Positions 1-60,535 of a stretch of DNA of 64,000 bases are shown in pieces. The stretch is from Bispira polyomma (Eukaryota). A program made the translations under genes and the position numbers. The first letter of the stretch is position 1, and each line of letters starts with the position of its first letter. Location of the stretch: positions 62,682,001-62,746,000 of the forward strand of contig OZ287752.1 in assembly GCA_965649765.1 (NCBI GenBank), written 5' to 3'. Under the pieces are notes generated by a model. That model did no database searches, was not told the DNA's origin, and saw only the letters and a list, made by a program, of their open reading frames with translations.

Positions 1-2197
1 ATACATTGCGTGCGTTTTTAATGAGATCTCTACTTTTTGCTTTTACCTGCAATTCCAGCTCATATTTATCCGTATTTGCTTGAGTACTACCTTTGGTACA
101 TAGAGGTATACTTTGTCGTTGTCGCTTTTGAATAGCTTGTGTGGTTGCCCTTGTGGCAGTATTTTGTTTGTCAATTTCAGTTATGTCACTTGCCAGAATG
201 TCAATAGGGACGGCCTTGTCCCCAAGGGGTGAAAATCTATTAGTGGTGGGAAGCACCCATTGTGAAGGGGGGTGTGATTTTGAAGCCATTGTTGGAGGAT
301 TTTGTTTAACTTTACCCTCCCCGCTGGCCAAACACCTTTTACCTGGGTTCTGGCAAGTGACATTTCTGTGATGCAATGAGGTCACCTTTTTGCGTTTAAA
401 CATGGGGGCCCTAGCCCGAATGTTTGTGCCATTATTGGCAGCTTTTGTGCCTGACTTTTTGACATTAAAGTCATCTGTACCTGAAATATTATTCACATTT
501 ACACATTGAATTCTACACACTTGTGCACTATTTACATCATTGTTTCAATCACTGACCACATTTCTGGGAAAACCAGAGCTTTTTAACACCTCTGCATACG
601 ACTTGTTTTTAAATCTAGCCCAATCGGACTGCCAAGACGTGCTGGCCTGGTGACCTTTAGTACTATTATACACAACCCTACTATGGAACTTTTTACTATG
701 GACAAGATCTTTTGCTTTTTCCACCGCTTTAGAGGATATGAGAATTGGCACTGCTTTATAGCAGTGCATTATTCATTTTTTGCTGGGTTTTTCCTACAAT
801 CCTTAGCAGGATGAGGGTAGAAACGCCCAGTCTTATGACACTCACTACAAACATGACTGTAAGTCACACCCCTAGTCTCGTGTTCCCCTTTATGGGGGCA
901 AGAACCTTTTTGGAAGTAGCGACAGGGAATAGTTTTGTCATGATTTTTCTTGGGGTTGCTGCTAGAATTTTGATTTTGGTTAATGACTTTTTGGGCATGT
1001 GCTCTTCGAATCCTATCCAGTTTATAAGAATCGCCCCATGAAACCTTTCCCTCCTCCATTTTACACAAAAGAACCGCATGGCTGCCCTTAGCAGCTGGCC
1101 AAGAAAAATCATGAGCGTCTTCCATAAGATCTGAGAGGTAGTCTAGCATGTGATTTTTGGTTTCAACATTACTTTCTTCCCGTGCAAGGCTGCGACTTAG
1201 ACGTACCTGCTTCGTTTAACAACACGAGCTCCTTCAACCGTGAGTCCACCGCCGTCTGTAGAGACTTTGATGTCCTGAGCATTTGCAGTGTGGGTACTAG
1301 TAACTCGTCAAGCGGGGCTGCCTGTGAAGTCTGCGTCAGCACTGGATCCACCACCGGGTTCACCACATAATCCACCACAGGATTGGCCAGACTCTGGGTT
1401 TCCCTCGAGGGCTGGGCTCTATGCTCGTTGTGATTAACCTTCTGCTCTACTTGTGTTATGCGCCCACTCAAGGCTCTCAGTTCATTAAGAATTTGCATAT
1501 TAATGTGGGCAGAGGTTACACCATCACTTTGAACAGAGTTCTGGAAATCTAAGTCAGTTTCTTCCTCATCTTCCATAATGTTATTACCAGTACAGTTCTC
1601 GTTTATTGGTCGGGTGTGGCTGATTCCACATTTAGTACAATCATACTCTTTCCTCGGGGCCATAGCCTCTAGATAAATACAAGGACTCGATCCCTTGATA
1701 CTTGCTACTATACGTGTTTAAACTAATTTATATGTCGAAACCAAGAATGATAAGACAACTTTTGATTTGATACTTTCCTTTAGAGGGAGCTCTACGAGCA
1801 GTATTATAGCAAGACTCAAGAGTGTGAGTTAACACGTAAAAACAGCCACAATCAGTCTGCGGATCCTTCCATAGTATACAACACTTGTTAGTAAGTTCAG
1901 CCGTAAGTCCTTTGCTGACACCACATATAATGTACGAGAATCATGTAAACTTTTAAAATCTAAAAAAAAATAAAGTAAAATATCCAAGATGGCGTTGTTG
2001 CCTATTTGACTTCAATGTAGAAAGTGCTGAAATTAGTGAAGAGGCGGGAAGAGAGGGGTCAGTTAGTACAAACTGACGAATTAGAAGAGGGGTACATAGG
2101 TCATGACCCCAGATGGTGAGTTAAGGAAAATACAGGAAGCACTGAACTACCTAGCCCCTGCGTGTCTATCCCGCAAAACTGAGCTACCTGTGTTATA
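1..2197 (-). mobile_element. Decayed tyrosine-recombinase (DIRS/Ngaro-like) retrotransposon, 5' part (5' end, gag, start of pol); runs off the left edge of the window
   Basis: gag-like ORFs 1169-1663 and 769-1149 resemble the gag of the intact element at 40458-41771 (SW..W, C-terminal CCCH+CCHC fingers). The 5' terminal hairpin motif at ~2132-2191 is shared with 7566-7610. Confidence 0.8.
769..1663 (-). pseudogene. gag-like ORF1 of YR retroelement, split by an internal deletion/frameshift near 1190
   Basis: N-terminal CTKCGISHTRPINENC knuckle and coiled coil, then GTSKSQ abruptly joined in another frame to AREESNVETKNHMLDYLSDLMEDAHDFSW. C-terminal CRYFQKGSCPHKGEH...CSECHK...H...C. Confidence 0.8.
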
Positions 2198-13119: not shown

Positions 13120-14700
13120 TTTATGTTATATGATTACAACAGATTTTTTTTCTTATAAAGAATAAGTGAAATTAGACTAAAAATAAAAGAAAAAGGAGAA
13201 TTACAAAGAAAAGGGAGGTACAGCCAAGACAAGAGGAGGAGATGGAGTTTGAAGAGAGGGATACAGATGATGAGGAGATTATACCAGAAACACAGCAGTC
13301 ATCTAAAGTCCCACAATTTTTACAACATTAGAACCGGCCCACTCGGAATGTAGTGGAAATGAAGTAAACCCAGGAGACCCAGGATACTCAGGATACCCAG
13401 CATAGTAGGGATACCCCGGACAGTGAGGTGGCAGCCTTCAGTAGGAAAAAGAAGAAGGGGAAAATGAAGAACCGATGAGCAGGAGGAGGCTGTGCTGGAC
13501 TTCCACTGTATAAAGACACTCAGAGGAGGACCATGCTGTGGGAGTCATATGGCTCAACCAAGGGATTGGATTACATAGAAGTCATAAAATGGTTCACATC
13601 CCAGAGGACTATCTTTGGAAAGCTGGGTGTGCCCAAGTCTGGGCAAGCGGCCCCAGAATTGACCGAGTGACAGATGTAGGTGAAGACCAACTTTGCGTTC
13701 CTCAAGCCACATATTAGACACCAGCTCAACAAGTCTGCTGGATTTAAGCCTATCGCGTCAGCCTCTCAGGGGGCTGCCCCTCGTGATTCACCTGTTGCAT
13801 TGTCCCACTCCGATACAGACCAGGGTGAGATGGAGTCGTCCAACTTTGCCTCACAAAAGTCTTCAGCCTTTCTCTACCCCTATCCAGGAGAGACAGGAAA
13901 GGCAGATCGGGATTGAGTTGGCAGATTCCATTGGAAAGATGCAAGAGACTATTTCAGGGATCCTGATGGAGGCAAAGAAACCCAAAGATGAGGGAGCTAG
14001 AGCAGCCTTTATAAACTGGTTGAGCAAAAAGACGGAGAAAATGACAGAACACTCCTTCCTGCAGTTCAAAAGGGAGTCCTTCAACCTAGTCACAACACTC
14101 CAGGAAAGGGCAGCAGGTCCATCAGCTCAAACAGCAGCTTTTCAGCCACAGCAACAGCCTTTCCCCCAATACCAGATGGGACCTCCAGCTTTTATACCTC
14201 AACCACCACAGCAGGGACGCTCCATCTATCAACAACAACAGCAACAACCAAGACCACAGCCTCCGCCACAGCAACAACTTGGCCCACTTGTGATTACAAC
14301 ACAAACAACACAAGTATTACTATCCTTGGCCAGCACCAGTGGTATTTAGCAGGGCCACCAAGCGATATCCGGAGGCAGCTTGACTAGTGGAGCCTACTAT
14401 AACCCACCATCAGTAGGTCCACTGTCAGTAGGTCCAATGTCAATGGACAACAGTGACATCATGAATACCTCGGAAGCTTCATTTGCCAGAAGTTTTGATT
14501 TAAACACACCAGCTACCAGAACATTAGGACTCCTTCAGGCTTCAAGGTTGTTGCTGACATACAGCTACCAACAGACCACAGGACCACAACCACCACCGAT
14601 TCAACATCATCAATCACCACCGCTTCAACATCATCAACCACCACCTCCCCCACCACCACCAACGACTAGTCACTCCTCTCCTCCTCCGTCGGTCATGTGA
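13120..14700 (+). pseudogene. Harbinger accessory Myb/SANT/MADF-like DNA-binding protein, frameshifted
   Basis: Acidic N-terminus, then fragments LWESYG...WFTSQRTIFGKLGVPKSGQAAPELTE..VKTNFAFLKPHIRHQ, then a Q/P-rich tail; multiple stops and frameshifts. Confidence 0.75.
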
Positions 14701-15249: not shown

Positions 15250-16245
15250 TTGTATTGTATTGTATTGTACATTTCGAACGTGCCTTATTGATACTAGGCA
15301 TCTTCTAAGGTGCAACATCAGAATCAATCAGCCAATAGAAAAAATGAAATACATAGCCAGGTCGTAAGGATGAATGCGTCAGTGTCCAGGAAGAGGACTA
15401 CGGCGGATGGGCGAGCCTGAAGAGATAAGTTTTAAGCTTTCTCCTAAAACCAGAAAGTGTTTCAAGCAGTCTAAGTTCAACTGGAAGGCTGTTCCATAAC
15501 ATAGGGGTGGCGACCGAGAAGGCTCTAGATCCAACTCTCTTGGTGGGTTTTTTAGTGGAAACAGAGAGTCTTTTTCCCCTTTTAAGGCTGCTGAAGGAGA
15601 GTTTAGTAGCGAGGTAGTGAGGCTGTTGAGAGACAACAGCTTTAAAAATGGTGATGTGCATTTTAAACAGGATTCAATAGTGAATAGGAAGCCAGTGAAG
15701 TTTCTTGAGGTATAGAGTGACATCAGTACGGATTCCCAAACGAAAGATGACTCTACATAGATAGTTTTGAATGGACTGCAACTTGTTTATGTGGGACTTA
15801 TTGGCTCCATACAGAAGAGAATTACAGTAGTCAAGGCGGCTACTAACAAGGGCGTTAGCCACAGTGATGGCAGTATCCAGTGACAGATAATTTCTGATTC
15901 TTTTGAGGTTCCGAATGCGATAGTAAAAGGAGCAGCAGATGCTGTTAATGTGAGGAAGAAATAAAAAAGCAGGGTCGATAGTGACACCTAGGTTTTTGAC
16001 CTGGTCTGAAGGTTGAATCTCATTGCCCAGCAGTGTGATTGGGAAAAGTAACCTATAATATTCACTGTGTTTCTTATTTCCAATTAGGATGAATTCAGTT
16101 TTGTCAGGGTTTAGTTTCAGTTTGGAGTAGTTCATCCATACCTAGACTGAGGAGAGACAGTCAGCAAGTAAATCCAGGTTGTATCTGGCATTCTGAGTGT
16201 TAAGAGAGAGAGAGATTTGAGTGTCATCAGTATACATGTGAGAGT
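15250..16245 (-). mobile_element. 5'-truncated L2/CR1-group LINE inserted in the Harbinger element
   Basis: Y(T)DDTQ, KLKLNPDKTEFILIG, VKNLGV, SRLDYCNSLLYG, LHWLPI, RAFSVATPMLWNSLP, FRRKLKTYLF; (TACAA)n 3' tail at 15250-15270. Confidence 0.92.
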
Positions 16246-31400: not shown

Positions 31401-32429
31401 CTCTTTTTATGGAGATTCATCAGTGTGTATTAACACATGTGTTGCTTAGAAACAATTTAAGAGAAATCTTATTGTGCAGTTTATTATATGATGAGGCCCA
31501 AATTTAGCGAAATTAACAGTGAATACTTCTCCAGTTAGAAGGTCATTATCAGCCTATACATTTATAGTCTAGCTCTTATATAGGTAAAATTATCAATACA
31601 CTCTTTATCAGTAAAGTGTTACTTTGGGTGTGATTATGGTGTTATCAGTGAATCAACCTTTGAAGTCACTCATCACACTGAAAGACCTGAAATTTAACCC
31701 CCCCAAAAAGAGAACCACCTAAAAATATATCTTTACATCCAGCCATTGTCACCTTAAATTATGTATTTACTTTATATACATTATATCTCCCCAACTGTGA
31801 TATGTTCGACTTGCTTATATATATTGTGATAAAAGTACCTTGTGTTAATGTCAACCTACTATATTATGTGGTGTATATGTTTTTAAAATAAGCAAAAACG
31901 TTTCATTTTATGCTGTAATTAAGTCATATGATAAAGCTTTGTCATCCAAGCACCCAACATTCCAAGTAATCGTCTAAGTTAAAAGTTCGGTTGTAAAAGC
32001 TGTATATCTGCTTGAGTGGTCTGTGTAAATAACAGCAACATACAATCTTTGCTGAAGTGTATACCATAAAGAGCTAAAAACTTGCCCATCTTTAACTATT
32101 GTCCAGACTGAAATAGTTAAGGTAAACAATTGCCCATAAATAATTGAAATGCGGCTACTGTTTTTCAGGTACATTTTAAATGAAATTATATTAAGTGGGG
32201 GAAAAAATAAATTGTTCGAGGTGTAGAATTTGTTTGCTGGATATTACATTATTTACTGTAATACATGTAAACATGGTCCAACACTTCTACTTCTGAAGTA
32301 GTAACAAATCAAAGTGTACCTGTATATTCTTATCTTCTGGCACATGAAATTGGCATTAGGATACAGATAACTCTGAAGCATTACCAACTGTAATTCGAAT
32401 TAGTGTAGGTAAATTGTGGGTAAATAAGT

Positions 32430-33509
32430 ATGGAGGATATTATTTTGGTAACAGGTGCCTCTGGATATATAGCAAGTCATATTGTGAACCAGCTGCTTCA
32501 ACAAAATACAAAGGTTAGAGGCACAGTGCGTAGCCTATCTAACGAACAGAAAGTGCTGCCAATTCAACAGCTAGCCGGTGGCAAAGAAGAGCTGTTGGAA
32601 TTAGTTGAGGCTGATCTGATGGACCAAAGTTCCTGGGTCAAAGCGGTGGAAGGTTGCAAGTATGTCATACATGTGGCCAGTCCCTTTCCCGCAAGTAATC
32701 CTAAGAATGAGGATGATGTCATCAAACCGGCGGTAGAGGGCACGCTGAATGTTTTGAGAGCATGTGTGGAGGCTGGGTCTGTTGAACGAGTAGTTCTTAC
32801 CAGTTCGGATGCAGCAGTGTCTGCCAGTCAGCCGATTACTCCACACAGCATATTTTCAGAAAAGGATTGGACAGAAATAGCAGAAACTAGTAGCGCATAT
32901 GTGAAGAGCAAGACCATGGCTGAAAAAGCTGCTTGGGACTTTATGAAGAATGCTGATGGTGAGGGAAACCTTCCAAAGTTTGAACTGGCAGTAACAAACC
33001 CCGGTTTAGTTATGGGCCCTGTCCTTTGTGGAGCAGTTACAACGAGTATGGAGATTGCTAAGCAAATAATGCAACGGGAAATGCCAATGCTTCCAAAGAT
33101 CAACTTCCCAGTCGTTGATGTGAGAGATGTTTCTGCCGCTCATATTGCTGCCCTGAGTGTACCCGAGGCTGCTGGTCACAGACATTTACTGACCCACAAG
33201 AATATGTGGCTACAAGACATCGCCAAAGTGATTGATGGAGAATTCGGAAAACAGGGATACAATGTTCCCACTACAGAGGCACCGTATCCACTTTTGTGGA
33301 TTCTTGGAAGGTTTGATCCAATGGTAAAAATGTTGCTTCCGGATGTGGGAAGGGTTGTGATACATGACAACACACGGATGACTAAGGTCTTGGGTATCAG
33401 ACCTAAAGATGTAAAGGAGACATTGATTGATATGTGCTATTCTATGGTGGAAAATGGTCAAATTAAGAAGACTTTGAAATACCATCGGCCAAGCAGTAAT
33501 AATGTATAA
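32430..33509 (+). CDS. Extended SDR, NAD(P)-dependent epimerase/dehydratase family (aldehyde reductase / DFR-CCR / GRE2-like), copy 1
   Basis: TGASGYIA Rossmann motif, VRGTVRS, HVASP, TSS catalytic Ser, YVKSK (YxxxK), NPGLVMGP, VDVRDV; 359-aa uninterrupted ORF. Confidence 0.95.
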   Translation: MEDIILVTGASGYIASHIVNQLLQQNTKVRGTVRSLSNEQKVLPIQQLAGGKEELLELVEADLMDQSSWVKAVEGCKYVIHVASPFPASNPKNEDDVIKPAVEGTLNVLRACVEAGSVERVVLTSSDAAVSASQPITPHSIFSEKDWTEIAETSSAYVKSKTMAEKAAWDFMKNADGEGNLPKFELAVTNPGLVMGPVLCGAVTTSMEIAKQIMQREMPMLPKINFPVVDVRDVSAAHIAALSVPEAAGHRHLLTHKNMWLQDIAKVIDGEFGKQGYNVPTTEAPYPLLWILGRFDPMVKMLLPDVGRVVIHDNTRMTKVLGIRPKDVKETLIDMCYSMVENGQIKKTLKYHRPSSNNV

Positions 33510-35900: not shown

Positions 35901-36693
35901 TCATGCAATTAAACCTACTGTCACGTTAGAGATTTCCCTGCGGTTGTCACAGGTGCTAAAGGAATGTTGATAATACACATATACAGCTTCTAAGAGTATG
36001 CAGATTGTACTTAATTATTAGCTCTAAAAAACAACAACACCTTTACACTTGACTGACCTTACTGGCTAAGCCACCTCACACAAACATCTAATTCCTGGGG
36101 ACCAAGTATTTTTTTAAAATAATTATTGAGATCATATCTCCATATATTAACTTATTATCTAAATTTATCGAAATATAATATCGACCAGATAATATCTCAA
36201 TACATTGACTAAGTTTTTCAATATATGGAACAAAACATTTCAATATATTGAATTAGTATATCAACATATTCTGACCAATCTTTGTGAAGTTCTAGGACAT
36301 GGGCCAAGGAAAAATGTAATAATTTTAGGTGGAAAGCCTACCTCCACCTAGGCATGCCACAGAGCCCTAAAAATACATTCTTGTAGCAATGCAAAAACTA
36401 CTACCCCTATTTGGATCTCAATTTTTGACTACAGCATGGGCCAATGAATAAATCTTTATAAGTAATCTATAGGAACATAGCAGTTCTCCTGTTTGCAAAG
36501 TGAGGTAAAGATATAGAGATAAGAAGCAGATTAGGTGACCTTGTAGTAATTAAAGGTGAAGTAAATGAAATTAATAGATAGTAGTTTGAGGTTTATTTTA
36601 TATACACATTAGTAAGGTATATACAGGGTAGGTTAAAAATTTTCAAGTTTTTTTAAAATTTAAAGAGAGAATTTTAAAATATCCCAAGCCAAA

Positions 36694-37659
36694 CTAAAGG
36701 GAAGAAGGGATAGAGGAAGCAAATGCAAGGGGAATAGTTGCAGCAGCCTGAGGAGTTTTCTGAAGATAAACCCAGACTGCTGAAGATCTCCATAACCCGT
36801 GAGACATAATGTTTTGGAGAGAAACGTTATTGTTAAAAGCATAGGTAGCTCCTGACCTTCTAAATGTGTGGAAACTATGACCTTTGTGTGGTATACCTAT
36901 ATGTTGTAAAACTAAAGTTAAAGAATATCTGACATGAGTGTCTACAATGGGAACATGAGGAAAACTTGCAGTAACAAAAAGTGGAGACTCCAGAGGCAAA
37001 GACCTTGAATCTAGCAGTTTATGAAGTGCCCTGACTGGGCACAAATGTATATTCTCCAGTTGGGGTAATTGAATTACATGATGTTCTGATCTATTTTGTA
37101 GGTTCTTAGCCCATTTAAGTATTAAATGGGCTCCAGGATGGCCAAACACAACATCCTTTCTAAGGAAATGACGAGTGGGGTCAAATTTATTTCTGGAATG
37201 TGGAGCAATGTTTGAGATTCTAAGGAATCCAAAGTATGACACCAGAAATATTGCCCTATATAATGGGGGATCCCCCAGAATGTCACATGCTTTAGATATC
37301 TGTTGTAAATGTGTAATATCAAAAATACCCCTAGGTTGAGGTCTAAAAGTAGAAGAATGTGACAAACTCCTAATGAACATGGAAACTGAGGCATTTTCGA
37401 AAATATTTTGGTCCCAATATAGTTTGTTAGCTGTGAACTTTAGAGCTGATAAATGGTTGGTTAAAACATTAGGGGAAGACCCGTTTTGCACCAAGTACTC
37501 CAAAAATGCTATAACAGAATTTGTTAAAATGTCCTCTATGCCAACAAATATAAGAAAAGCAATGAAAGTTCTAAACTGTTGGTTGTATGTAGCAGTAGTC
37601 TTTGGACGTAATGCTGAAGAGACCCGTTTCCATGCAGAATTCATAAGGTGTTGATTCAC
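36694..37659 (-). CDS. Tyrosine recombinase/integrase
   Basis: FGFLRISN (R), KWAKN (K), LCPV, HTFRRSGA (HxxR), HGLWRS, VWVY (Y): full catalytic set. The called start is GTG, so the true start is uncertain. Confidence 0.95.
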   Translation of the reverse strand: MNQHLMNSAWKRVSSALRPKTTATYNQQFRTFIAFLIFVGIEDILTNSVIAFLEYLVQNGSSPNVLTNHLSALKFTANKLYWDQNIFENASVSMFIRSLSHSSTFRPQPRGIFDITHLQQISKACDILGDPPLYRAIFLVSYFGFLRISNIAPHSRNKFDPTRHFLRKDVVFGHPGAHLILKWAKNLQNRSEHHVIQLPQLENIHLCPVRALHKLLDSRSLPLESPLFVTASFPHVPIVDTHVRYSLTLVLQHIGIPHKGHSFHTFRRSGATYAFNNNVSLQNIMSHGLWRSSAVWVYLQKTPQAAATIPLAFASSIPSSL

Positions 37660-37676
37660 GGTGTTGGTTCCTACAA

Positions 37677-40439
37677 TTAAACATGTAAATTTAAGTTAAA
37701 ATACTGAATAGGAATACTATGCCATTTATATCCTGTTTCTAACCTGTGGAGCTGGTGACCAGTTGGTGGGTGGTCTGAGTATAACCTTGATAAAATGTCT
37801 GCTATAGTATTGTCCCTCCCCCTAACATGCTGAATAATTAAAGTAATGTCATAAGCTGCAGTAAGCAGCCACATATTCCTTAAACATAAAGCTAAAAATT
37901 GGTCCTTAGTCTTATCAGACCTAACTACCAGTACCACAGCCATGTTGTCACAGTTAATAATTATTCTCTTATGTTTCCACTGTATCCCCCACACACGCAA
38001 GGCAATTAATATATTAAGCATTTCAATATGGACTATGGACAGATGCTGGTTATAGATGTTATAAAATGGAGAAGCAAAAACTTGGTCAGTATAAACCCCC
38101 CCTAAACCAGTTAAGCATGCATCAATGAATACTTCATTCTGGTGAGGAGGAATTATTGGATCGATATAAGTTATGCCATTATACAAGGGAAGAAAACGTA
38201 TAAACCAAAGCAAATCTGCTTTTATCTCATTAGTAATATGAAATCGTTTTGCATGAGCATTCTTCCTGAAAGCCATTAATAATCGATTTATAAAAATCCT
38301 AGCCGGTTTAACACACTTATGAACATAGAGAAGCCTGCCTAAGACAGATTGGAAATTTCTTCTAGACATCCACTTCTTATTAAAAGCTTGTTGGCAACAT
38401 TCGTAAGTTTGTTCCAATTTTTCCTTGGAAATACTAATAATTCCCTCCTCTATGTCAATATCTATCCCCAGGCAAGTTATATTTCTACTAGGACCTGAGA
38501 TCTTGTCCGGATTTAGGGGAAGACCCAAGGAAGTTACTAAGTCATAAAGTTCGTTAAAAGCGCCTTCTGCCTCATGAGCAGGTGATATTCCGATGTAGTC
38601 ATCAATGTAGCAAAATATAGTATGTTTACGTTTGCTCATGGTGTAAGCTATGACGTCAGAGCATCTCTGAAAAGATCCGGATCCGTGTATCCATCCGAAG
38701 GCCATAGCCGGATCAATATACTTATATCCATCAAAACAGATACCTAGCTTCATGGCATCGACCGGATCTATTCTTAAATTTCTAAATGCCCTCGAAATAT
38801 CCAACTTGAATATCCTAGGATTATCAGTATCCCTGATTTTTGCTACAATGTCATCTATGGTAGGGAACTTTAAAGCGAATTCGACTCCATCGAAACGTTG
38901 TTTATCTACATTACTGTTAACCGAATTGCCTTCCGGATAAGAGAGGTTAAGGATCACTCTGTGTTTATTTTTGTCTTTAGGACGAGTGAGTAAGGGGGAA
39001 CAGTGAAACAACTCGCTATCTACTTCCTTAACTGGACCTAACATGGCACCATTGACTTGTTCCTTACTGATATATTGACTAACTGCCTCTGCATGTTGCA
39101 GGGCAGAACTATGATTAGAAACTTCCTTAACTGTTAGATTTTCAGAACGCTCGAGAGAAAGTGGAAACCCAAAAGTTAAATATTGGAGTAATAACTTATC
39201 CGGATAATCAAGCAAGACCTTCTCCCAAGCCTGGATTTGTAATCCAGAAGCTATTGGAATCCTGGCGCCCTTATAATTGGCACAACCAGAATCCTTGATT
39301 GTGTGAGCTATGTCCACCATCTGTTGCACTGTAGTAATTTTAATTGGAGCCCTATCTGGGCCACAGAATTCAAATTCTGTATGACTTAAAGCAATAAAAC
39401 CCTTATCCTTATCTGGAAAGTTGAAATCCTTAATTACCTTATTCTGACTACCTATCTCTGAACCATGATCCTTAAGTTCGTACACTGTGATATTTGCTTG
39501 TCCTCCATCCAGTGACTTGTTCTTGCGATGAAGTTTTGTCTTCCCTTCATGCATGTCCAAGTTTGTACAATTATGAAATGGCTGTGTGACTATATCATCA
39601 GCTTCAATCAACTTATCGATTAAGTTAGTTATATATGTAGTATAATTAACATTATGCCGTTGTTGACATTCAATATCTTTCTTATAATGATAGCAGGTAT
39701 TCCTAGCCACCATGTGATCAGTATCCGTAGGAATGTATACATTATGAACATCCATAATGTCCTCACGACTTTCCATGATGGTTACCTGTGTACAGAATTT
39801 TCCTAAAATATGAATAGGACCTATTGGAGTGCCAAGACATTTTACTAATGCACTCCCTTTTGTGTGACCCCCATCCCTCCAGGTATAAAAACCATTAATT
39901 TCTGAGTGAACAGAGTTCAAGAAAACCACGGGGAACAATGGTCCCCCAATATCGGTGCAAAATAGCCAATTTGTTTTCGAAATCTCCACATATGCTTGTG
40001 TGGAATCTAACACATTGTAACCACTGCTTTCCATGCCGTGTGGACATTTAACACTAAAATTAGAAATATTTCTTACAGTATTTGTGGTACCCAAATGGAA
40101 CTTGTCTTCACCTGTTATATTTGCCAATTTTTTATTTTTATTGGTTGTATCCCCAGAATCATTATAAGGACTGTCTACATGTGTACGATTTTCATATATA
40201 ATCTTTTTTTCCTCATGATGTTCCATTTGGTTGCCCTCAAACTGTGTAGTAATGCCAGTATCATTGATATCAATTATATTATGCATGCATTGTTTATCCT
40301 TATGACTAATTTCCAAGTAGTTGGGCAAAATGCCCTGATCAGTATAGTTTACAATGTCATTATCTTTGAAATTTATTGACTTAGATACATTAGTTTCTAC
40401 AGTTCTGTCCCTACAACTCACTACTAATGTTTCTTTCAC
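37677..40439 (-). CDS. pol: reverse transcriptase + RNase H (DIRS-type) with a long N-terminal extension
   Basis: SPLLTRPK, RVILNLS, LDISRAF, FGWIHGS, YIDD, CLGI; RNase H FIDAC / HIEM / NCDN / NTIADILSR. Confidence 0.95.
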   Translation of the reverse strand: MKETLVVSCRDRTVETNVSKSINFKDNDIVNYTDQGILPNYLEISHKDKQCMHNIIDINDTGITTQFEGNQMEHHEEKKIIYENRTHVDSPYNDSGDTTNKNKKLANITGEDKFHLGTTNTVRNISNFSVKCPHGMESSGYNVLDSTQAYVEISKTNWLFCTDIGGPLFPVVFLNSVHSEINGFYTWRDGGHTKGSALVKCLGTPIGPIHILGKFCTQVTIMESREDIMDVHNVYIPTDTDHMVARNTCYHYKKDIECQQRHNVNYTTYITNLIDKLIEADDIVTQPFHNCTNLDMHEGKTKLHRKNKSLDGGQANITVYELKDHGSEIGSQNKVIKDFNFPDKDKGFIALSHTEFEFCGPDRAPIKITTVQQMVDIAHTIKDSGCANYKGARIPIASGLQIQAWEKVLLDYPDKLLLQYLTFGFPLSLERSENLTVKEVSNHSSALQHAEAVSQYISKEQVNGAMLGPVKEVDSELFHCSPLLTRPKDKNKHRVILNLSYPEGNSVNSNVDKQRFDGVEFALKFPTIDDIVAKIRDTDNPRIFKLDISRAFRNLRIDPVDAMKLGICFDGYKYIDPAMAFGWIHGSGSFQRCSDVIAYTMSKRKHTIFCYIDDYIGISPAHEAEGAFNELYDLVTSLGLPLNPDKISGPSRNITCLGIDIDIEEGIISISKEKLEQTYECCQQAFNKKWMSRRNFQSVLGRLLYVHKCVKPARIFINRLLMAFRKNAHAKRFHITNEIKADLLWFIRFLPLYNGITYIDPIIPPHQNEVFIDACLTGLGGVYTDQVFASPFYNIYNQHLSIVHIEMLNILIALRVWGIQWKHKRIIINCDNMAVVLVVRSDKTKDQFLALCLRNMWLLTAAYDITLIIQHVRGRDNTIADILSRLYSDHPPTGHQLHRLETGYKWHSIPIQYFNLNLHV

Positions 40440-40457
40440 TGGTAGTCGGTCAAGGTC

Positions 40458-41771
40458 CTAACTATGCTTATTTTCCAACTGTTTTGTGGAATTAGCCTTG
40501 TAGCACTTAAACTCAGGATGAGGCAAATCTTTATTCAAAACGGTAGCACAATGCCAGCAGGCATGCTTGTAATTTCCATGATCATTCTTCTGGGAACATT
40601 TCCCTGAATTAAACAACTTGCAAATCGTGGATCTCCCCGTATACGCTCCAGCCGAACCTGTGCTGTGAGATGAATTAGCCATCACTGTCTGGGACGCGCT
40701 AATTCGGTTGAGCGACCACTGAGTAGTGTTATTCCAGGTCAGCCGACCTTCCTCGACCTCCTGCATGCTTGTCGCCCAAGCCGTGCGAACGACCTCCCAG
40801 GGGAGCGACGAAGCATCCTTCAGCGAGAGTACTACTTGCTGGATCATATCACGTAACAGCTGGTTGTCACTTATCTGTAGAGCATTACACAACTGCCCTG
40901 CAGCCCAATGTGGAAGGGAAAGCTCGTCAAACGTTGGACGCTTACGTGAAGACCCCCCACTCCAACCTTCATTAGCCCATTTCATGCGCGGATCTGTGGC
41001 CGCTATGTCAGTATTATTATAACGTCCCGACTTCTGTCGCGAATGAACCTTACCTTGGTTAAAGATAGCTTGTGCCCTGACTTCATACTCAGCCAGCCGC
41101 TGATTCACTAAGGCTTGCACCTCGGGCATCGACCTCAAAACGTCCGTCCTAGGAACAATTCCATCACGTGTGTATTCAGCTGAGGTTGAAGCTGTAGTAG
41201 TGGGCCCGACCAAACGTCCATAACTGCTGGTGGGCTGAACATAAGCTCGTGGAAGCGCTGTGCTGGATACGGACGCTGGCTGCACGACTGAAGCAGGCGA
41301 ACCGGTTATATTTCCATAACCACTGGTAGGATGTATCACTGGTGAGGGTACGTAAGCCGGTTGAAGCGCTGTAGTGGACACGGCAGTTGTCTGTACAGGT
41401 GTAACCCCCCTAGCTTCTATCTGGTCCAACCGACGGGCTATGGCAGCGTTAGATTGCTCCATTCGATTCAACATTGTCAATATTGCTACGTTCTCACTGG
41501 TAGGATTAACCGAAGTAACGGATTGCATCGCTTGTGGCATTGGATTTTGTAAATCTACCGAGCCCGCCATCGGGAAGGTGGAACCTCCCGCTTGAGGCGA
41601 ATTTTGATGAGAGCAGAGAGCTTGCTCGGACGGTACCCGTAGGTCTTCTATAATACTTTCATTCATGTCAGTGATATGAGCTACATTACCCTTTGTACCC
41701 TTCACAGTAGACTTCTTCTGTTGTTTCGACTTGGGTGCTGCCTTCATCGGTGTTTTCTTAGCTCGTCCCAT
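40458..41771 (-). CDS. gag-like ORF1 with C-terminal zinc fingers
   Basis: Basic N-terminus, coiled coil, KSGRY, W-rich core, CKLFNSGKCSQKNDH (CCCH) and CWHC...H...C. Confidence 0.85.
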   Translation of the reverse strand: MGRAKKTPMKAAPKSKQQKKSTVKGTKGNVAHITDMNESIIEDLRVPSEQALCSHQNSPQAGGSTFPMAGSVDLQNPMPQAMQSVTSVNPTSENVAILTMLNRMEQSNAAIARRLDQIEARGVTPVQTTAVSTTALQPAYVPSPVIHPTSGYGNITGSPASVVQPASVSSTALPRAYVQPTSSYGRLVGPTTTASTSAEYTRDGIVPRTDVLRSMPEVQALVNQRLAEYEVRAQAIFNQGKVHSRQKSGRYNNTDIAATDPRMKWANEGWSGGSSRKRPTFDELSLPHWAAGQLCNALQISDNQLLRDMIQQVVLSLKDASSLPWEVVRTAWATSMQEVEEGRLTWNNTTQWSLNRISASQTVMANSSHSTGSAGAYTGRSTICKLFNSGKCSQKNDHGNYKHACWHCATVLNKDLPHPEFKCYKANSTKQLENKHS

Positions 41772-44288
41772 GTGTGCACGGTATATAATTCACAGTTAAA
41801 ACAATATGTATATAATAAAACCCACTCCAATGTAAAAAACTAAAATACTAAAAGGCTATAAAGTTCAGACACTTTGGCATTAAGTGTCGCCAAAAATATT
41901 TCTAATGTTGTCTCTTGTAAAACGAAATTCAATATGGTAGGATGACCATGTGAGAGGTAAAATTTGGGGTTCAAATGTCTCCCATTGGTTAATCGAAAGA
42001 GAGGCCATTGAACCGTACTCGAATGGACCCCTAGGGGTTAAGGTAAAGGTATATATTTGCTAAGGGAACTGAATAAGCATACCCCTTTAGGGTCGTGCTG
42101 TGTAGAATCTCCATCCCCTTCAGATCCATCTTGTTACCTTATTTATAAAATGCATGAATACCTCTCTCCTCGTTTATTTTGTAATCTTCTTGCTGTTTAA
42201 TTTTAACAACTTTGACCATATCTGGGAGAAAAAGTTGCTTGTGTAATTAGATTATTTGCATTAAGTATCTACATGTACATCTTTTTAAAGCTAAACAAGT
42301 CTAAAACAAATTGAAATGGATGTTTATAAACAAATACATCATTTTTCGTGTACTTTTATCCTAAGACAGGACAGATGTAATCATTACATGTGGGTTGTGT
42401 GATGTGCAAACTGAGTGGCCCAATCCTCCGTCATAAGTTTTCTTTTAATTACAAGGTAAATGACTTTCATCAGGGTTCACAGCTTGTAAACGAGTTACAA
42501 ATCAAACAAAGGATGGGGTAGCACTCACATCCACTATTTAAATGTTATTATTAAGCATACTTATTACTCTATTTATTGTATTCAAAGTTACTAGGCCTTA
42601 AATTTCAGCATTGAATGCTGTGCTTTTTCTTCTGCCCCTTCAGGGTGATTGCTAAATATTTGAAAATAAGTATATATAAAATCGACTCAAATATTAAACT
42701 CGAAGATACTGCATTGAAACTTTCTACCTAAATTGTCAACTTGCTAATGTAAAGTATTCAATCTGATCAAACCATTTGGCTACATTTTGACTACGCTGAG
42801 TGAAGAGACTATACATTTTTTGTCTAACTATAATAATAACAATTGAAGTATATATATAGAGCCAAATTAATGAGAACATTCTCTAAAGTGCTGATATCCA
42901 TTGAGGGAAGGTTGTTACAAAAAACCATCCACCAGGAAAGGGTGACTATGGAGGGGGTAGGACAGTCTGAAATAGTAATCTCAAGCATCAGACTGGATTG
43001 TACTTTGAAATGAATCTCAAGCACCACACTGGATTGCAGTTTAACATGTATCTCAAGCACCACACTGGACTTTCTTGTAAGATCATTTTTCAGAGACAAA
43101 GCAACAAAAAAGCTGATGATAGATGACTGGTGTAAAAATATGTCTAAACTTTTCTAACAGTAAATGTTTCCCATGCGTTTAACAGAACATATTTTTATGG
43201 AGATTCTTCAATGGGTATAACCACATGTTGTTCAGAAACAATTTACGAGAAATCTTGTTGTACAGTTTCTTACATAATCAGGCCTGAACTGAAAGGTAAA
43301 TACGCCTCTATTAAGAAGGTAATTATCAGCCCAATACATTTATCGTCTAGCGCTTATGTAGTTAATATTGTCAATGAACTTCTTATCAGTAAAGTGTGAG
43401 CGTGGGTGTATATTAGTTAAATGTTGTTCAATACAATAAAAATGTTGGTAATGAAGGAATCATGCTTTGAAATCATTTACACACTAAGACCTGCAACTTA
43501 ACAATAAAAATGATAAACATCTAAAAGTATCTCTCTAAAAGTACCCAAGCTATTGTCACCCTTAAATTATGTATTTACTTTTAATTGTATGAAATATATC
43601 CCGCCAACTGTGATATGTTAGACTTTGTTATATATATTGTGATCAAATAACTTGTGTTAATACATCACTATATCATGGGGTGCACATATTATGTATAATA
43701 GTAAAAATGTTTTATTTTATGATCTAACTAAATCATAATACAAGGCTAGTAAATCAAGCACCCCAAATTCCTAGTCATCGTCCAAGTCAAAAGGTTGGTT
43801 GTAAAAGCTATTTATCTGCTTGAGTGGTCTGTGTAAAGATCATTATTATACAATATCTGCTGGAGTGCATACCATAAAGAAATTAAAACTTGCCAATCTT
43901 TAAAAATTGTCAAACTCTATTTGTTTTATAAAACAGTTAAGGTAAACAATTGTGTATAAATGGTGGAAATACGACTACTGATTTGAGGTACATTTCAAAT
44001 GAAATCATATTTAGTGAGGACAAAATAAAGGGTGTAAGGTGTAGAATTTGTTTGCTGAATATTACATTCTTTACTGTAGCATACATATTTTCTAAACAGT
44101 ACACATAGATTAACATTTCTACTTCTAAAGTAGTGACACACCTAAGTGTACCTGTATATTCTGCACCTTCTGGCACATGCAACGTTATATTGGCATGTGG
44201 ATACAGATAAGCCTTACCAACTTTGTAATTTGAATTAGTGACATAAAAAAAATCAGCTGTTATTCATTCACTTTGTATGTAAATAAAT

Positions 44289-45368
44289 ATGGAGGATATC
44301 ATTTTGGTAACCGGTGCTTCTGGATATATAGCAAGTCATATTGTGAACCAGCTGCTTCAACAAAATGCAAAAGTTAGAGGCACAGTGCGTAGCTTGTCTA
44401 ACGAACAGAAAGTGCTGCCAATTCGGCAACTAACTGGTGGCAGAGATGATATGTTGGAATTAGTTGAGGCTGATCTGATGAACCAAAGTTCCTGGGTCAA
44501 GGCGGTGGAAGGTTGCAACTATGTGATACATGTGGCCAGTCCCTTTCCAGCAAGTAATCCTAAGAATGCAGAAGAGGTCATCACACCAGCTGTTGAGGGA
44601 ACATTAAATGTTTTGCGAGCATGTGTGGAGGCTGGGTGTGTTGAACGAGTAATTCTTACCAGTTCGCAAATAGCGGTGTCAGCGACTCAGAAAATTTCTC
44701 CCCATAGGATTTTTTCAGAAAAGGATTGGACAGATATAGCAGAAACTAGTAATGTATACGTGAAGAGTAAGACCATGGCTGAAAAAGCTGCTTGGGACTT
44801 TATGAAGAAGGCTGATGGCAAGGGAAACCTTCCAAAGTTTGAACTGGCAGTAACAAACCCTGGTTTAGTTATGGGCCCTGTCCTTTGTGGAGCAGTTACC
44901 ACGAGTATGGAGATTGCTAAGCAAATAATGCAACGGGAAATGCCAATGGTTCCAAAGATCAACTTTCCAGTCATTGATGTGAGAGATGTTGCTGCTGCCC
45001 ATATTGCTGCTATGAGGATACCCAAGGCCGCTGGTCATAGACATTTACTAACCCATGAGAATATGTGGCTACAAGACATGGCCAAGGTGATTGATGGAGA
45101 ATTCGGAAAACAGGGATACAATGTTCCTACCACAGGGGCACCGTATCCACTTTTGTGGATTTTTGGAAGGTTTGACCCAACAGTGAAGATGTTACTTCCG
45201 GATGTGGGAAAGGTGGTGATGCACGACAACACACGCATGACTAATGTCTTGGGTATCAAACCTAAAGACGCAAAGGAGACATTAATTGATATGTGCTATT
45301 CTATGGTGGAAAATGGTCAAATAAAGAAGACATCTAAATACCAGCCACCAAGCAGTATTAATTTATAA
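44289..45368 (+). CDS. Extended SDR oxidoreductase, copy 2
   Basis: Same motifs as copy 1; about 48 differences in 359 aa (manual count). Confidence 0.95.
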   Translation: MEDIILVTGASGYIASHIVNQLLQQNAKVRGTVRSLSNEQKVLPIRQLTGGRDDMLELVEADLMNQSSWVKAVEGCNYVIHVASPFPASNPKNAEEVITPAVEGTLNVLRACVEAGCVERVILTSSQIAVSATQKISPHRIFSEKDWTDIAETSNVYVKSKTMAEKAAWDFMKKADGKGNLPKFELAVTNPGLVMGPVLCGAVTTSMEIAKQIMQREMPMVPKINFPVIDVRDVAAAHIAAMRIPKAAGHRHLLTHENMWLQDMAKVIDGEFGKQGYNVPTTGAPYPLLWIFGRFDPTVKMLLPDVGKVVMHDNTRMTNVLGIKPKDAKETLIDMCYSMVENGQIKKTSKYQPPSSINL

Positions 45369-51589: not shown

Positions 51590-54500
51590 TTTTAGGTGAC
51601 CAAGAAGTTAAGGCCACCCTAACACATAATTAAGCTAAACATTGCTAAAAAATTAACAAGTGACTTTGAGGTCACTTTACAAGACGATAAATCTTTAACA
51701 CTTTCAATTAAAAGAAGTGACTTAAGTTCACCAAAATGGAAATAACTTTAAGGTTAACATTAATTAAGATAAAGCCATGCTTTTAAGGTTAACTTCAATT
51801 AAGATAAGTAGAATGACTTAATGTCATCTACCCATAATACAATACTACTAGTGAAGTAAGAGAATGAAGGTCATCTTACATTTAGTTCAAGTTACTTTAA
51901 AGTTTACTAGTTACTAGGCAGTTTTAGTTAGGGCAACCTAAGGGCTACCTTTCAAAAGAAAACTGCCATTTATATTTAAGAAATTACTTGTAGTATGTAC
52001 CATATGTTACAAATGAATATACACATAATTTATTAAAATGCCCAAACGCAATGCTATTATTAAATTATATTATGTTTTGTAGTGAATGGGCTACCGAGGC
52101 AGAGGCATTAGGGGTGGACGAACGCCAGCACCCATGGACCATGATAGCTTGTACATGGCCCTTAAAGCTGCTACTGGACAAAGGTGGGAATTTCTGAGGG
52201 CAGGCAACTGCACTACAATGATATTGATAATATTTCTGCAGATTCTTTGCCCAACGTAGGACAATGTGAACTCCAGGAGGGCCTCCTTAGGAAATCTGTA
52301 CATGTTAGGTGTTTTTCAGCATTGAATTGCTGGAGGGCACCAAATTCGACAAACGAAAAAACCCAAAAAAGGCTGTCAAAAAATAGAGCCAAAAACACAT
52401 ATTCATGTGGAAGTACCTTAGCTTGCTAAATTATTGCAGTAAGCATAGGCAGAGTGATAATCCCTTTTAAACTGGGAGAGTAAGGAGTTGACATAGATAG
52501 TGTTCTGAAAAATAACTTGATCTGAGGATGAGAAAAAATGTGGATTGGCATTGACTACAACTGAAAGTAGTGCTTTAGAGCTGAAACATAGTTCTGAATT
52601 GAGGGAGGTTTTAGCCTCTGCTGAGCCAGGTACTCCACAAACTGCAAAATAACCTGCAATTTTACAATATCTGATATACCTAAAAATGTGGCAAACGCCA
52701 AAAACAGTCTCACAATTCGAATAAGCAAGCCATGTTCTGGAGGTTAAGGCATTTTCAAGTCTACCAGAAGCCGACTTCAGCAGGAAGGTTTGCACATTAA
52801 GATCATAAATCTTTATTCATAGCAAATTTGTCACTACTCACATCCCAGCATTTTTTGTCTTTTACTTCATTATGCACCCTTGCATTAGAATAACCCCAGC
52901 TATGTGGACTACTTTATGTTGTATGTGGCAGTTTCTAACCAAATGGAGAGTGCTAACATAGCGAAGTTTTTGTCATGAAATCTGCTCGAGTTTAAACCTG
53001 ACACCACAGCCCCATTGTCGCACCATAATTTTATGGTGTTATTTTTAAAACATTTTCCCTAGACCCTCAGGGCCACCAGAATATTTCACATTTCTAAATG
53101 TACTATTGTCATTTAAGGCGGCTTATCTGCCAGGAGTAAGGCAGTATATACGTTATCCGACCACACTGCCCCAATCCCCTTCAATGAGGCATCCACAAAT
53201 AAGTCATACTTAGGTTCATTTTTAAGATGCATCTCCACTACACCATTGAAATAAGTTAGGCACTGGCTAAAGTGAGATTGATGCTCTTACTGGGATACGT
53301 TTTCCTGAGGAGTCTTAATATCCGATTTAAAAACAACTGAGCTGTTGACACACATCTTGATATTTATAGTAATTTTCCTAAAATGGACTGCAGGTCTCTA
53401 CGGGTACAACAACTTTTGTTTTTCCATTGGATACAGATCCAAATAATTTTTAAAGTTCCTAATTTTGCATTGACCAGAATTCCCATGCATATTACCTCCT
53501 CCGCTGAAGGAAACACTTTTTTAGGGTTTATGAGCAAACCTAAATACTCAATCAAGGAGTATAGTTGGTTAAAGGAATTTTTTGCTTTATCCAAAGTCTC
53601 AACGGTGACCAAGTCGCCGATGTAATTCCAGATCCGGAGGTGCTTGGTTTCCATGACTTGACAGAGACTGTCCGTTACCCGTTAACAAATGGCTGTACTA
53701 TGCTTATAGCCCATCATTACAGCTAAATCCACGTATGTTTTATTTCCCAATCTCAGGCCAGTATATTTATAATCAGTAGGATCTATACGGGCAAAGATCA
53801 TGATAACAACTTAAAAAAATGGGCGGTGTTAGCTCACAATAAAGTGGGATGTTGGGCTCCCCTAATTACCTGGGGGCGCCTGTCCCTGTCCCCTCTGAGT
53901 TAAATATGACAGCCTGGAGAACTGTGTTAAGAGGGAACAGGGATTCAAGGATGTGTGAATACTTGGAATTTGGTTTCCCTTTGGATTTAAAAGCAGAGCC
54001 ATTTCAGTTTAATGAAAATATAAAAAATCATGATAGTACACTCCAACATCCTAAAAGTGTCGACAATACAGGAACATTTTTCTGATCTACATTTTTACAA
54101 TACTTTTTATTCCAAAACACCCTACTATATACTGGAAGTCAGCTGTGGGAGTCCTTTACATTTTCCTTCGACTTTGCATTTCCCTTACAATGAATTTCTC
54201 TATGATTTTGCACCTTTTTGCCCTGATTATAACAATTGGCACAAGCGTGCTTCAATACCATTCTACCAAAAACATGGTCCTCACTTTGACTACAGGTACC
54301 ACGATTATAGGCATTACACATTACCATATCAAATTTTGATTTTTGCTTTTGAGAGGCACTAGAGCCTAGAGAACTTTCATTGTGAGAAGTGTCCTTAAGG
54401 GTACACTGGGTTAATCTTGATCTCAAATCATGGATTTGACTTACATTTCGCCATTCTTTTTTCCCCTTTTCCATTTCCAAAAGTACTGGCAATGATCACT

Positions 54501-55770
54501 TTTTACCATGTACCATGAAGTTTCTGGGCCATCTCGCATCAATTGCATACCATATTTAAGCATGTTGTCCCTAATTTTTGCATCTTTTTCCTTATATATA
54601 CAACCTAGATAACCCTGAAACCTCATCAGTGGTGTTAACTCTTCATACGATGGCTGTTTCTTACCAGAAATGTTATAGCAAAGCTCATGAGGCCAATTTA
54701 TGAGGTGCTTAATTTATGTTATGATGTTCTTTGCAAGTCAGATTTGAGCTTCTTACCGTTTTCAGGTGATCGATAAAGATGAGCTTGATGCTTGTGCAGT
54801 CTTTTGTCGACCTGGGCCTGTATTTCCTCACTTGTCTTGAGAAATCTCTGGTTGGGCAGGATCACGTCGTTCAGCTCGTCATAGTCGGTCTGGTACTCTG
54901 TATCATACTGAGGCTGCTTTCGCCGCCTACCACTCCGACTGTGTGTTTGGCATGTACCCCCGACTGTACTGAGGAACTATGTGAGGGCTTATCTTTTCTA
55001 ACACTACTCATTGAGTAACTTATGTCCCTGTCTCTCTTCACCTCACTCATCTCAGTTTCAAGCTTGTCTAGCTTGCTGAGAATTATGTCCAATTTTGATT
55101 GTTCAATAACGCCTAAAGGTGCCAGCACTTCTCTCGTCCCACTGGGGGCTGTCTCGGATCCTCTTGCAAGCATATCTCAAGACTTGGTATGCTGGAGCAT
55201 ATCTAACTGACAGTTCCGCCCCATGAGTTTCTGGTGAATAATTCCACATTTTTTACACAATCCAGTCTTTCCCGGCATATTTTTAACACTGCAATAGTCT
55301 TAATAGGGTTTTATTTTTTGTGCAAATTTGTAACAGATGCTGCACCTTATGCTTGTAGAAAGGTATGTAAATATATGTGATTAAAACTTTTTTCAATTAA
55401 AATGTGATTTGACTAAAATTTTTGATTGACTGCAATTCACTGAAAACATGCCAAGCGTGGAAATTAATAGAAGGCTATTGAAGCCGAAACAAGCATACTA
55501 TGCAACATCAGACGATACTTTAACAGGACTTCTCCTAGCATGTAATTTTGACACATACTAACTGCTTACATAGGTTTAAATACTCGACGTCATGCTTCAC
55601 TTGCTACAGGAATACCACATTTCTGTAATGGGGAGAAAGGGGGAAAAGACTTAATTTTAAGGTAGTGAGGTAGATACTTCGACTGACCCAAAGTGCTGCG
55701 CAGCTTTATCACTTGTTTTGCGGTCCTTCATGTCTGTAGAACCCACATTACTCCTTACATTACTTCATAT
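51590..55770 (-). mobile_element. Decayed YR retrotransposon (gag, RT/RNaseH, truncated YR) with an internal inversion
   Basis: gag start MPGKTGLCKKCGIIHQ...C at 55278; zinc fingers at 54139-54330; RT RIDP...WNYIGD...LQSILGKLL; RNase H VDAS, CDN; YR VVQLP...LCPVAAL. Ends approximate. Confidence 0.88.
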
Positions 55771-59127: not shown

Positions 59128-60535
59128 TTTTTTATTTATTTTTTATTTTTTATTTATTCATACACAAGGTATAATATTACAAATACAGAATACATAAATG
59201 TTTTCACAACAATGAACAAGGAACAATGTTATTAAACAATATATACAGTTTGGCAATTACATTTAATATTATACAAATCTTCATGATGTACACAAACATT
59301 CTAACATATAACTAATCTCAGTATAATTAAATTTAGTATGATTTTTGTCTTTAATACTAATGAGATCTGTAATATTTCCACATATAATTTCATCCTCTAT
59401 GTTAATCGGAGAGTGAACATGCTTGTCACTTACATTTTTAAATTCTTGAGGTGCTTTAAGAGCACATATATAGTTACAATTGAGTTCCTTGGAAATAACA
59501 TTAATATTTTTTCCCACATTGGAATGACTTCCATAAACAGCCAGTCTACCAGCAAGTTCTAAACAATTGTTATCATTGGTCAATACTGTATGTATAAATT
59601 TGTTGAATCTTTTACACAACTGCACATCAATTGGGACATCATTGCATACTAAGTGTATATATCTCCTATGGGTTCGGTTTGACAGGTTAAATAGTCTTTT
59701 TATTGCTTTTCTCCATGCTGTATAAAATTTTAAAATTTTTCTAGATTCAAAATCAAATAGTACACAGCCATAGAGAGGCATACAATAACTTTTAAACAAT
59801 TTGTATTTCACTGACACAGATGCATTTTGAAATGTATTAGGTATACTATTTAAAGCAATATTAAATGTATTTATAGCTTCATCTATCGTTTTTACTTTGC
59901 ATTTAAAACAATTATGTGCACAGACTGTGAAACAAATTTAATATATATAACCTTATGACATAAGCCTGCAATCATTTTACCTTTTGAAGCTGGAAAGTGC
60001 AAAAGTTGATATTTTTTGCATTAAACAACACATTATATTTATGCCTGAAAACATCACATATTTTAAGCATTTTTTTCATTGAAGATAGTGTAGGAGATGG
60101 CAATACAGTATCATCAGCATACCCTAATCCACCCATTTGATAGAATGCCCCTTGTTTTACACCATTTGATATTTCAACAAATTTTGAAACATAATGGTCC
60201 CATTTGATTCTAAGTGATTGATGTGTGTACATATAAGCCAGTAGGCGACATATAAGCCAGTGACTGTTTTCTTTTAAAACCAAACTGTAAATCACTTGGT
60301 TTTAAAATATTTCTACTGCTGGATAAAATTAACAATTCAAGAACCTTACCTATGATACTACTAAGGGCAAAACCTCTGTAATTTTCAATCATTTAATGAT
60401 TTATTTCTAATTTGGGGGATCGGTATAACTGTTGATGCAAGTAGGTCACCAGGTGAAAAACAATGCTTTAACATAGAGTTGTACAGTAAACTCAGATATA
60501 CATATAATTTATGACAACCATGAATGACAAACATG
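59128..60535 (-). mobile_element. Decayed LINE (CR1/L2-group) RT and C-terminus with A-rich tail
   Basis: NYRGFALSSIIGKVLE, SDLQFGF, SNGVKQG, GYADDTVL, KLFKSYCMPLYGC...WRKAIKRLF; T-rich run at 59128-59157. Confidence 0.88.

Follow-up and report, generated by a model that had tools for sequence, protein, structure and literature searches.

The 64,000-nt stretch of the Bispira polyomma genome analyzed here (the window, whose positions are used throughout) carries a copy of an Ngaro-like retrotransposon with three open reading frames (ORFs), gag, pol (reverse transcriptase, RT, plus RNase H) and a tyrosine recombinase (YR), all on one strand. Our comparative analysis indicates that a conserved splice donor within gag and an in-phase acceptor at the start of YR are likely used to produce the recombinase as a spliced Gag(1-239)-YR fusion. 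Part of the full-length RNA would be spliced, removing the C-terminal half of gag together with all of pol, whereas the unspliced RNA would serve for the synthesis of Gag, of Gag-Pol by recoding, and as the template for copying. A fused product of about 564 aa had been predicted in the first-pass annotation of this DNA, and the arithmetic agrees, with a first coding exon of 718 nt and a total length of 564 aa. Across the clades compared, the conserved GT donor and the YAG acceptor (Y, pyrimidine) are found in compatible phase, the pattern of spliced subgenomic expression.

For the comparison, 100 stretches were hand-picked from match lists to span the diversity of the element; all comparison DNA comes from the same genome (1.04 Gb, 75 contigs). 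Clade A, the clade of the window copy, comprises 40 loci, clade B 20 loci of the family of a copy at position 1207 and clade C 20 loci around the family of a copy at position 54757, where L092 gave no match and was dropped. The 20 loci of clade D were fetched later than those of clades A-C. The YR sequences of the four clades are about 30-50% identical. Donors were tallied over 100 loci (99 fetched loci and the window copy), of which 89 have a readable KS motif and 11 do not, and acceptors of clades A-C over the 74 of 80 loci that could be anchored by the conserved N-terminal motif of YR.

Splice signals in gag and at the YR start

Phase-1 donors at the same place in three diverged gags had been described in the first-pass annotation and are indeed present. 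The window copy has AAG|GTAAGG, and two decayed copies have CAG|GTACGT (clade B) and ACG|GTAAGA (clade C); each of these sites splits a Gly codon of gag just before the KS motif. The window donor ties for the top consensus match among the 284 GT sites of the element. G|GTA occurs no more than 33 nt upstream of the KS motif in 85 of the 89 loci, covering all four clades, and in 82 of them it lies in phase 1; the three off-phase loci are frameshifted copies, and the donor is lost in four single copies. The surrounding 9-mers vary by clade (AAG|GTAAG, CAG|GTACGT, GTG|GTAAGA and GAG|GTAAA). Thus, the encoded residues vary as well (QGK, SGT, SGK and GGK), as had been noted before, while G|GTA stays constant.

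Synonymous constraint, which had been suggested as a check of the donor, is evident at this position. Clade A has 24 conserved four-fold degenerate columns, and just one of them, the donor Gly, is encoded by a single codon (GGT in 10 of 10 families); the adjacent Gly of KSG uses all four codons. For clade B, 4 of 40 such columns are single-codon, and the donor GGT and ACG are two of these four. Elsewhere GGT accounts for 98 of 378 Gly codons. When the gag and pol alignments were scanned for donor-like sites, the KS donor was the sole one that all sequences of clades A, B and D share at a single homologous position. A second phase-1 donor-like site was found at gag codon 298 in clade B (6 of 6 sequences), and no conserved phase-1 donor was found in the pol alignment of clade A. 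The N-terminal helices of Gag are conserved between clades and could, speculatively, bring YR of a spliced fusion into the particle of the element. In a low-confidence structural model of Gag (mean pLDDT 45), a long helix ends at residue 240, that is at the donor, and is followed by a disordered linker; a fold search with this model returned generic helical bundles only (best Z 6.9).

The proposed YR acceptor, TTTAATTGTAG|GA with its cut at 37671/37670, was likewise confirmed as an AG located 5-6 nt past the pol stop codon and in phase 1 of the YR frame. Conservation of this AG between the pol stop and YR had been named as a further check. In 72 of the 74 anchored loci of clades A-C, an AG ends on the first base of one and the same YR codon; TTNYAG occupies this site in 70 of the 74 and also in all 20 clade D loci. 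The 35 distinct acceptor sites have T at -6 in 35 and T at -5 in 34 cases; only 17 of the 345 AG sites of the element match TTNYAG. In the sequences compared, conservation of both the donor and the YR acceptor exceeds chance. Protein constraint fails to explain the acceptor, since the residue in front of the junction can be V, S, T, P, A, L or I, 39 of 41 clade A loci have a stop codon in the YR frame no more than 12 codons upstream, and clade D has a T-rich non-coding spacer between its pol stop and the acceptor. The acceptor could previously not be found in a decayed clade C copy near position 52800; compared with its relatives, this copy lacks about 19 nt precisely at the site.

YR similarity begins within the first codons after the junction, even in families without an early ATG. 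In clade B the first ATG does not occur before codon 31, and 8 of the 20 clade D loci lack an ATG from the upstream stop to codon 30. The earlier statement that YR of the window copy (ORF 37695-36694, minus strand) has only a GTG start is wrong, as an in-frame ATG is present at 37644, codon 9 past the acceptor. Of 120 listed database YR proteins from other assemblies, 21 reach the junction with the anchor motif, and 20 of the 21 have G or D there, in most cases following IS, a pattern expected in the proteins from a phase-1 TTTCAG|G or |A.

Expression of YR and Pol

Several observations weigh against a spliced recombinase. The case is wholly comparative, and all DNA stems from a single genome, in families of shared ancestry. 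An ATG is found at codon 9 in the window copy and in four other clade A families, and in some families an ATG overlaps the pol stop (ATGA or TAATG type); in such families YR could thus arise without splicing, by reinitiation. Genome pattern searches detected no spliced retrocopy of the window family (0 vs 33 unspliced matches) or of a clade D family (0 vs 56), and two further pattern searches detected none either, two matches of one of them being point variants at -3. A Gag-YR fusion was not found in the protein collection, in weak searches against bacterial-style gene calls, and no branch point was established.

A profile of Gag exon 1 had no match in the protein collection. Four longer YR proteins were found there, and none is Gag-YR: P0121 and P0123 run on from pol into YR, while the remaining two have an RT domain. 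A young copy (L035:6690-6710) has pol and YR in one frame of 1253 codons, owing to a small deletion, and so is similar to the pol-YR run-ons P0121 and P0123. No related loci were found in metagenome and viral contigs. The runs X1-X3 cover the flanks of the element evenly, in a DNA-like manner, and are uninformative on splicing; neither the 12 joints given for the window copy nor the 15 given out of 94 for L048 include a donor-acceptor joint.

YR could also be made from unspliced RNA, either through termination-reinitiation downstream of pol or by use of an internal start, with the splice-like motifs having another role in the RNA such as U1 binding or packaging. The ATGs at codon 9 or overlapping the pol stop fit this explanation, and excerpts of PMC5580714 describe a second role of U1 binding at the donor of a retroelement, Arabidopsis EVD. 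However, it leaves unexplained the invariant, phase-matched TTNYAG, the families without an ATG before codon 30 and the T-rich spacer of clade D, and we consider it quite unlikely. Alternatively, the YR acceptor might be real and be joined to a different upstream exon, through another donor or a trans-spliced leader. Further donor-like sites do exist, such as the phase-1 site at codon 298 of clade B gag, but no donor-like site other than the KS donor is common to the clades, and the KS donor is always in the matching phase. Furthermore, a leader without ATG would cost the conserved first 30 codons of YR in clades B and D. Such a junction therefore appears most improbable.

The first-pass annotation had envisaged one donor and alternative acceptors for both downstream ORFs. 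While the Gag(N)-YR part of this idea passes both sequence tests described above, the splice from Gag to RT is not supported. The pol acceptor suggested for it, cut at 39413/39412, exists in phase 1 of pol with a good local fit (TTTCCAG) and would yield a product of 817 aa, but it is not conserved: YAG is present in 4 of 8 families and tracks random Pro codon choice. In addition, the pol region that this splice would skip is stop-free over 341-444 codons in 11 of 11 copies, all chosen for open pol (chance at most 1e-12 each), with 21-77 stops in its other frames. The ratio of nonsynonymous to synonymous substitution rates (dN/dS) in this region is 0.55-0.64 between and 0.75-1.2 within families. 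The open frame and these ratios argue that the region is probably translated. Taken together with the recoding-type signals at the end of gag, this makes splicing to 39412 very unlikely. The N-terminal extension of pol (window 39430-40457) is kept open and diverges fast, with a few conserved islands (TNW, GFY and Y..Y.T.IID).

The signals at the end of gag differ between the clades. In clades B and D, gag and pol overlap in the -1 frame and a hairpin follows A AAA AAC/T. This hairpin was matched in 27 of 40 loci, 25 of which also have the slippery run, and from family to family the paired bases of its stem differ in both arms. The features of -1 programmed frameshifting, namely slippery heptamer, short spacer, hairpin and -1 overlap, are thus all found, and A AAA AAC with a hairpin is also known from retroviral Gag-Pol recoding. 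For clade C, an in-frame TGA CAG CCA is present in 10 of 12 readable loci and is followed by a conserved peptide. This resembles retroviral Gag-Pol readthrough, in which an in-frame stop is followed by CAR YYA, the type I readthrough motif according to excerpts of PMC13517186. In the window copy pol shares its frame with gag and is separated from it by a single TAG. Throughout clade A the gag tail is variable but ends in an invariant in-frame TAG-G, after which come C/A-rich (CNA) triplets and, at +19, YAG|G.

Two routes to Pol are conceivable for clade A. We favor stop readthrough, which the sequence comparison renders reasonably probable. Recoding would then proceed by -1 frameshifting in clades B and D and by stop readthrough in clade C and probably clade A. 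The other route extends the use of the gag donor and is compatible with its splicing to YR. Here the same donor would also serve pol by splicing to YAG|G 19 nt past the gag stop (40439/40438), giving a Gag(N)-Pol of 1159 aa. YAG|G is found at +17 to +19 in 11 of 11 family representatives of clade A, L065 looking like a deletion product, and at this motif third codon positions are fixed and second positions vary. No conserved RNA structure was found after the clade A stop, and its context UAG-GAC with CNA repeats fits none of the three readthrough types in excerpts of PMC13517186, apart from UAGGUA in one family. On the other hand, the 40439 site differs from the YR acceptors in lacking a T-rich tract and in having A at -5, and the stop itself is an invariant TAG-G in the pol frame after a variable gag tail. 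Moreover, the slippery sites and hairpins of clades B and D and TGA CAG CCA of clade C mark recoding as a habit of the family. Splicing to this site is therefore possible, yet rather unlikely. The TAG|G at the gag stop was also considered as an acceptor for the KS donor and was rejected, as this site is in phase 0 and splicing to it would bring a stop within two codons in the window family. Related clades (L031-L132) thus carry different gag/pol joining signals, and no report of recoding in elements of the order DIRS was found in our literature search.

Relation to known systems

Retroviral and gypsy env and foamy virus pol are downstream genes expressed by splicing from a leader, whereas YR would instead be joined to half of Gag. 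For some YR elements, Goodwin and Poulter (2004) reportedly may refer to spliceosomal introns; if so, the present observation would be less novel. The nearest documented analogue is the splicing of the Arabidopsis Ty1/Copia element EVD, for which excerpts of PMC5580714 describe partial splicing of one primary RNA, so that a compact element provides several proteins. EVD splicing yields a short Gag-only RNA according to the same excerpts; in the window element pol would be skipped and YR fused to half of Gag.

A full-text literature search, judged by titles and the openings of abstracts, found no report of spliced YR expression. None was found either in excerpts of PMC7192593 (where the splicing described is that of a marker intron), PMC9210276, PMC8547959, PMC3783388, PMC3266345, PMC6681497, PMC4157794, PMC9341512, PMC10294476, PMC1965478, PMC9940879 and bioRxiv 10.64898/2026.05.21.726589. 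On Ngaro-like elements, excerpts of PMC4157794, PMC9210276 and PMC3266345 give ORFs and their overlaps and no route of YR expression.

In the excerpts covered here, the third ORF of YR retrotransposons is described without a translation route, and many of the families analyzed lack an early start codon. If the splice is used, the working recombinase would be a Gag fusion, which would alter the annotation of these elements and the study of their integration step. The prediction is exact and cheap to examine, by a single reverse transcription PCR across the junction. A more tentative idea, to which we give slightly less than even weight, is that splicing of Gag(N) to YR is an ancient and general route of recombinase expression in Ngaro-like retrotransposons, perhaps in the whole order DIRS, combined with a recoding switch for pol that can be exchanged. 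In that case a single RNA would support a programme like that of retroviruses, with Gag from unspliced RNA, Gag-Pol by recoding and the Gag-recombinase by splicing, and the annotated YR ORFs of these elements would be second exons.

Element layout and neighboring sequences

The features discussed above are compiled in Table 1. According to the layout definitions in excerpts of PMC4157794, PMC9210276 and PMC3266345, rather than by a tree, the window element is Ngaro-like: it shares the order gag, RT/RNase H, YR, the A1-B1-A2-B2 repeats and the lack of a methyltransferase. The A1-B1-A2-B2 pattern, with the internal pair downstream of YR, is fully or partly present in L031, L032, L036, L039, L048, L055, L075 and L123 and was not detected in L130. 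The repeats are direct, and the inverted terminal repeats with an internal complementary region of DIRS1-like elements were not seen. PAT-like elements also have split direct repeats and a Gag Cys/His motif. They encode a methyltransferase according to excerpts of PMC4157794, after RNase H, while pol of the window element stops about 35 residues past RNase H, leaving no room for one, and no methyltransferase was matched by Pfam in the element. An SGNH hydrolase ORF was not seen downstream of YR (longest ORFs 61-69 aa in L032), which is a difference from Ngaro-like elements. Pfam matches of the ORFs (RVT_3, Phage_int_SAM and Phage_integrase) are weak and below cut-off; the catalytic-type motifs of YR were recognized from the alignment, and the label gag rests on position and motifs.

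Table 1. Positions of the element and of its predicted expression signals in the window
Feature	Positions	Strand	Remark
Ngaro-like YR retrotransposon copy (A1 - gag - pol - YR - B1)	36481..42104	-	Without the A2 ... B2 tail of sister copies; based on repeats and depth edges
Split direct repeat A1	41893..42104	-	212 nt
Split direct repeat B1	36481..36686	-	About 206 nt
gag ORF	40458..41771	-	437 aa; helices at the N-terminus, linker, helical C-domain, Cys/His motif at the C-terminus
pol ORF	37677..40457	-	926 codons; poorly conserved open N-terminal part, RT, RNase H
YR coding exon	36694..37670	-	Catalytic domain preceded by a SAM-like N-domain
Conserved phase-1 splice donor AAG|GTAAGG	41048..41056	-	Cut 41054/41053, after gag codon 239
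Homologous donor CAG|GTACGT, decayed clade B copy	1201..1209	-	Cut 1207/1206
Homologous donor ACG|GTAAGA, decayed clade C copy	54751..54759	-	Cut 54757/54756
Conserved phase-1 splice acceptor TTGTAG|G	37670..37681	-	Cut 37671/37670, just after the pol stop
Putative intron	37671..41053	-	3383 nt, C-terminal half of gag and all of pol; by arithmetic
Short deletion removing the YR acceptor from a clade C copy	52790..52805	-	
Earlier proposed pol acceptor TTCCAG|AT	39412..39425	-	Cut 39413/39412; present, not conserved
gag stop TAG-G in pol frame, then conserved C/A-rich motif ending in phase-1 YAG|G	40439..40460	-	Cut 40439/40438; may act in readthrough or as a weak acceptor for pol
A-rich slippery-type site and hairpin, gag end of clade B copy	747..782	-	

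The window copy ends with B1 (36481-36686) and lacks A2, a spacer of about 650 nt and B2, the state that recombination between B1 and B2 would produce. The element is one of many copies in the genome, with 126 scored YR matches of 100% to 66% identity and 23 near full-length copies at 94% identity or above. Joins in the contigs of runs X1-X3 span the entire element at L048:1727-8640 and mark its ends; they may represent empty sites or a junction of the two termini of the element. Long ORFs that by eye look like those of other retroelements (LINE-like or Penelope-like) lie inside or beside YR elements at L042:4074-6308, L077:3896-6613, L034:892-2154, L063:866-1846 and L102:798-3200.

Upstream of the window element, a 36-nt unit is present in three tandem copies (42977-43084). 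The element is flanked by two similar single-ORF genes of the NAD-dependent epimerase/dehydratase type (32424-33509 and 44283-45368; Pfam assignment for the first). Other ORF fragments were observed at 13684-14349, 15674-16141 and 59281-59937, one of them Gln/Pro-rich and two resembling the ends of LINE-type RT genes.

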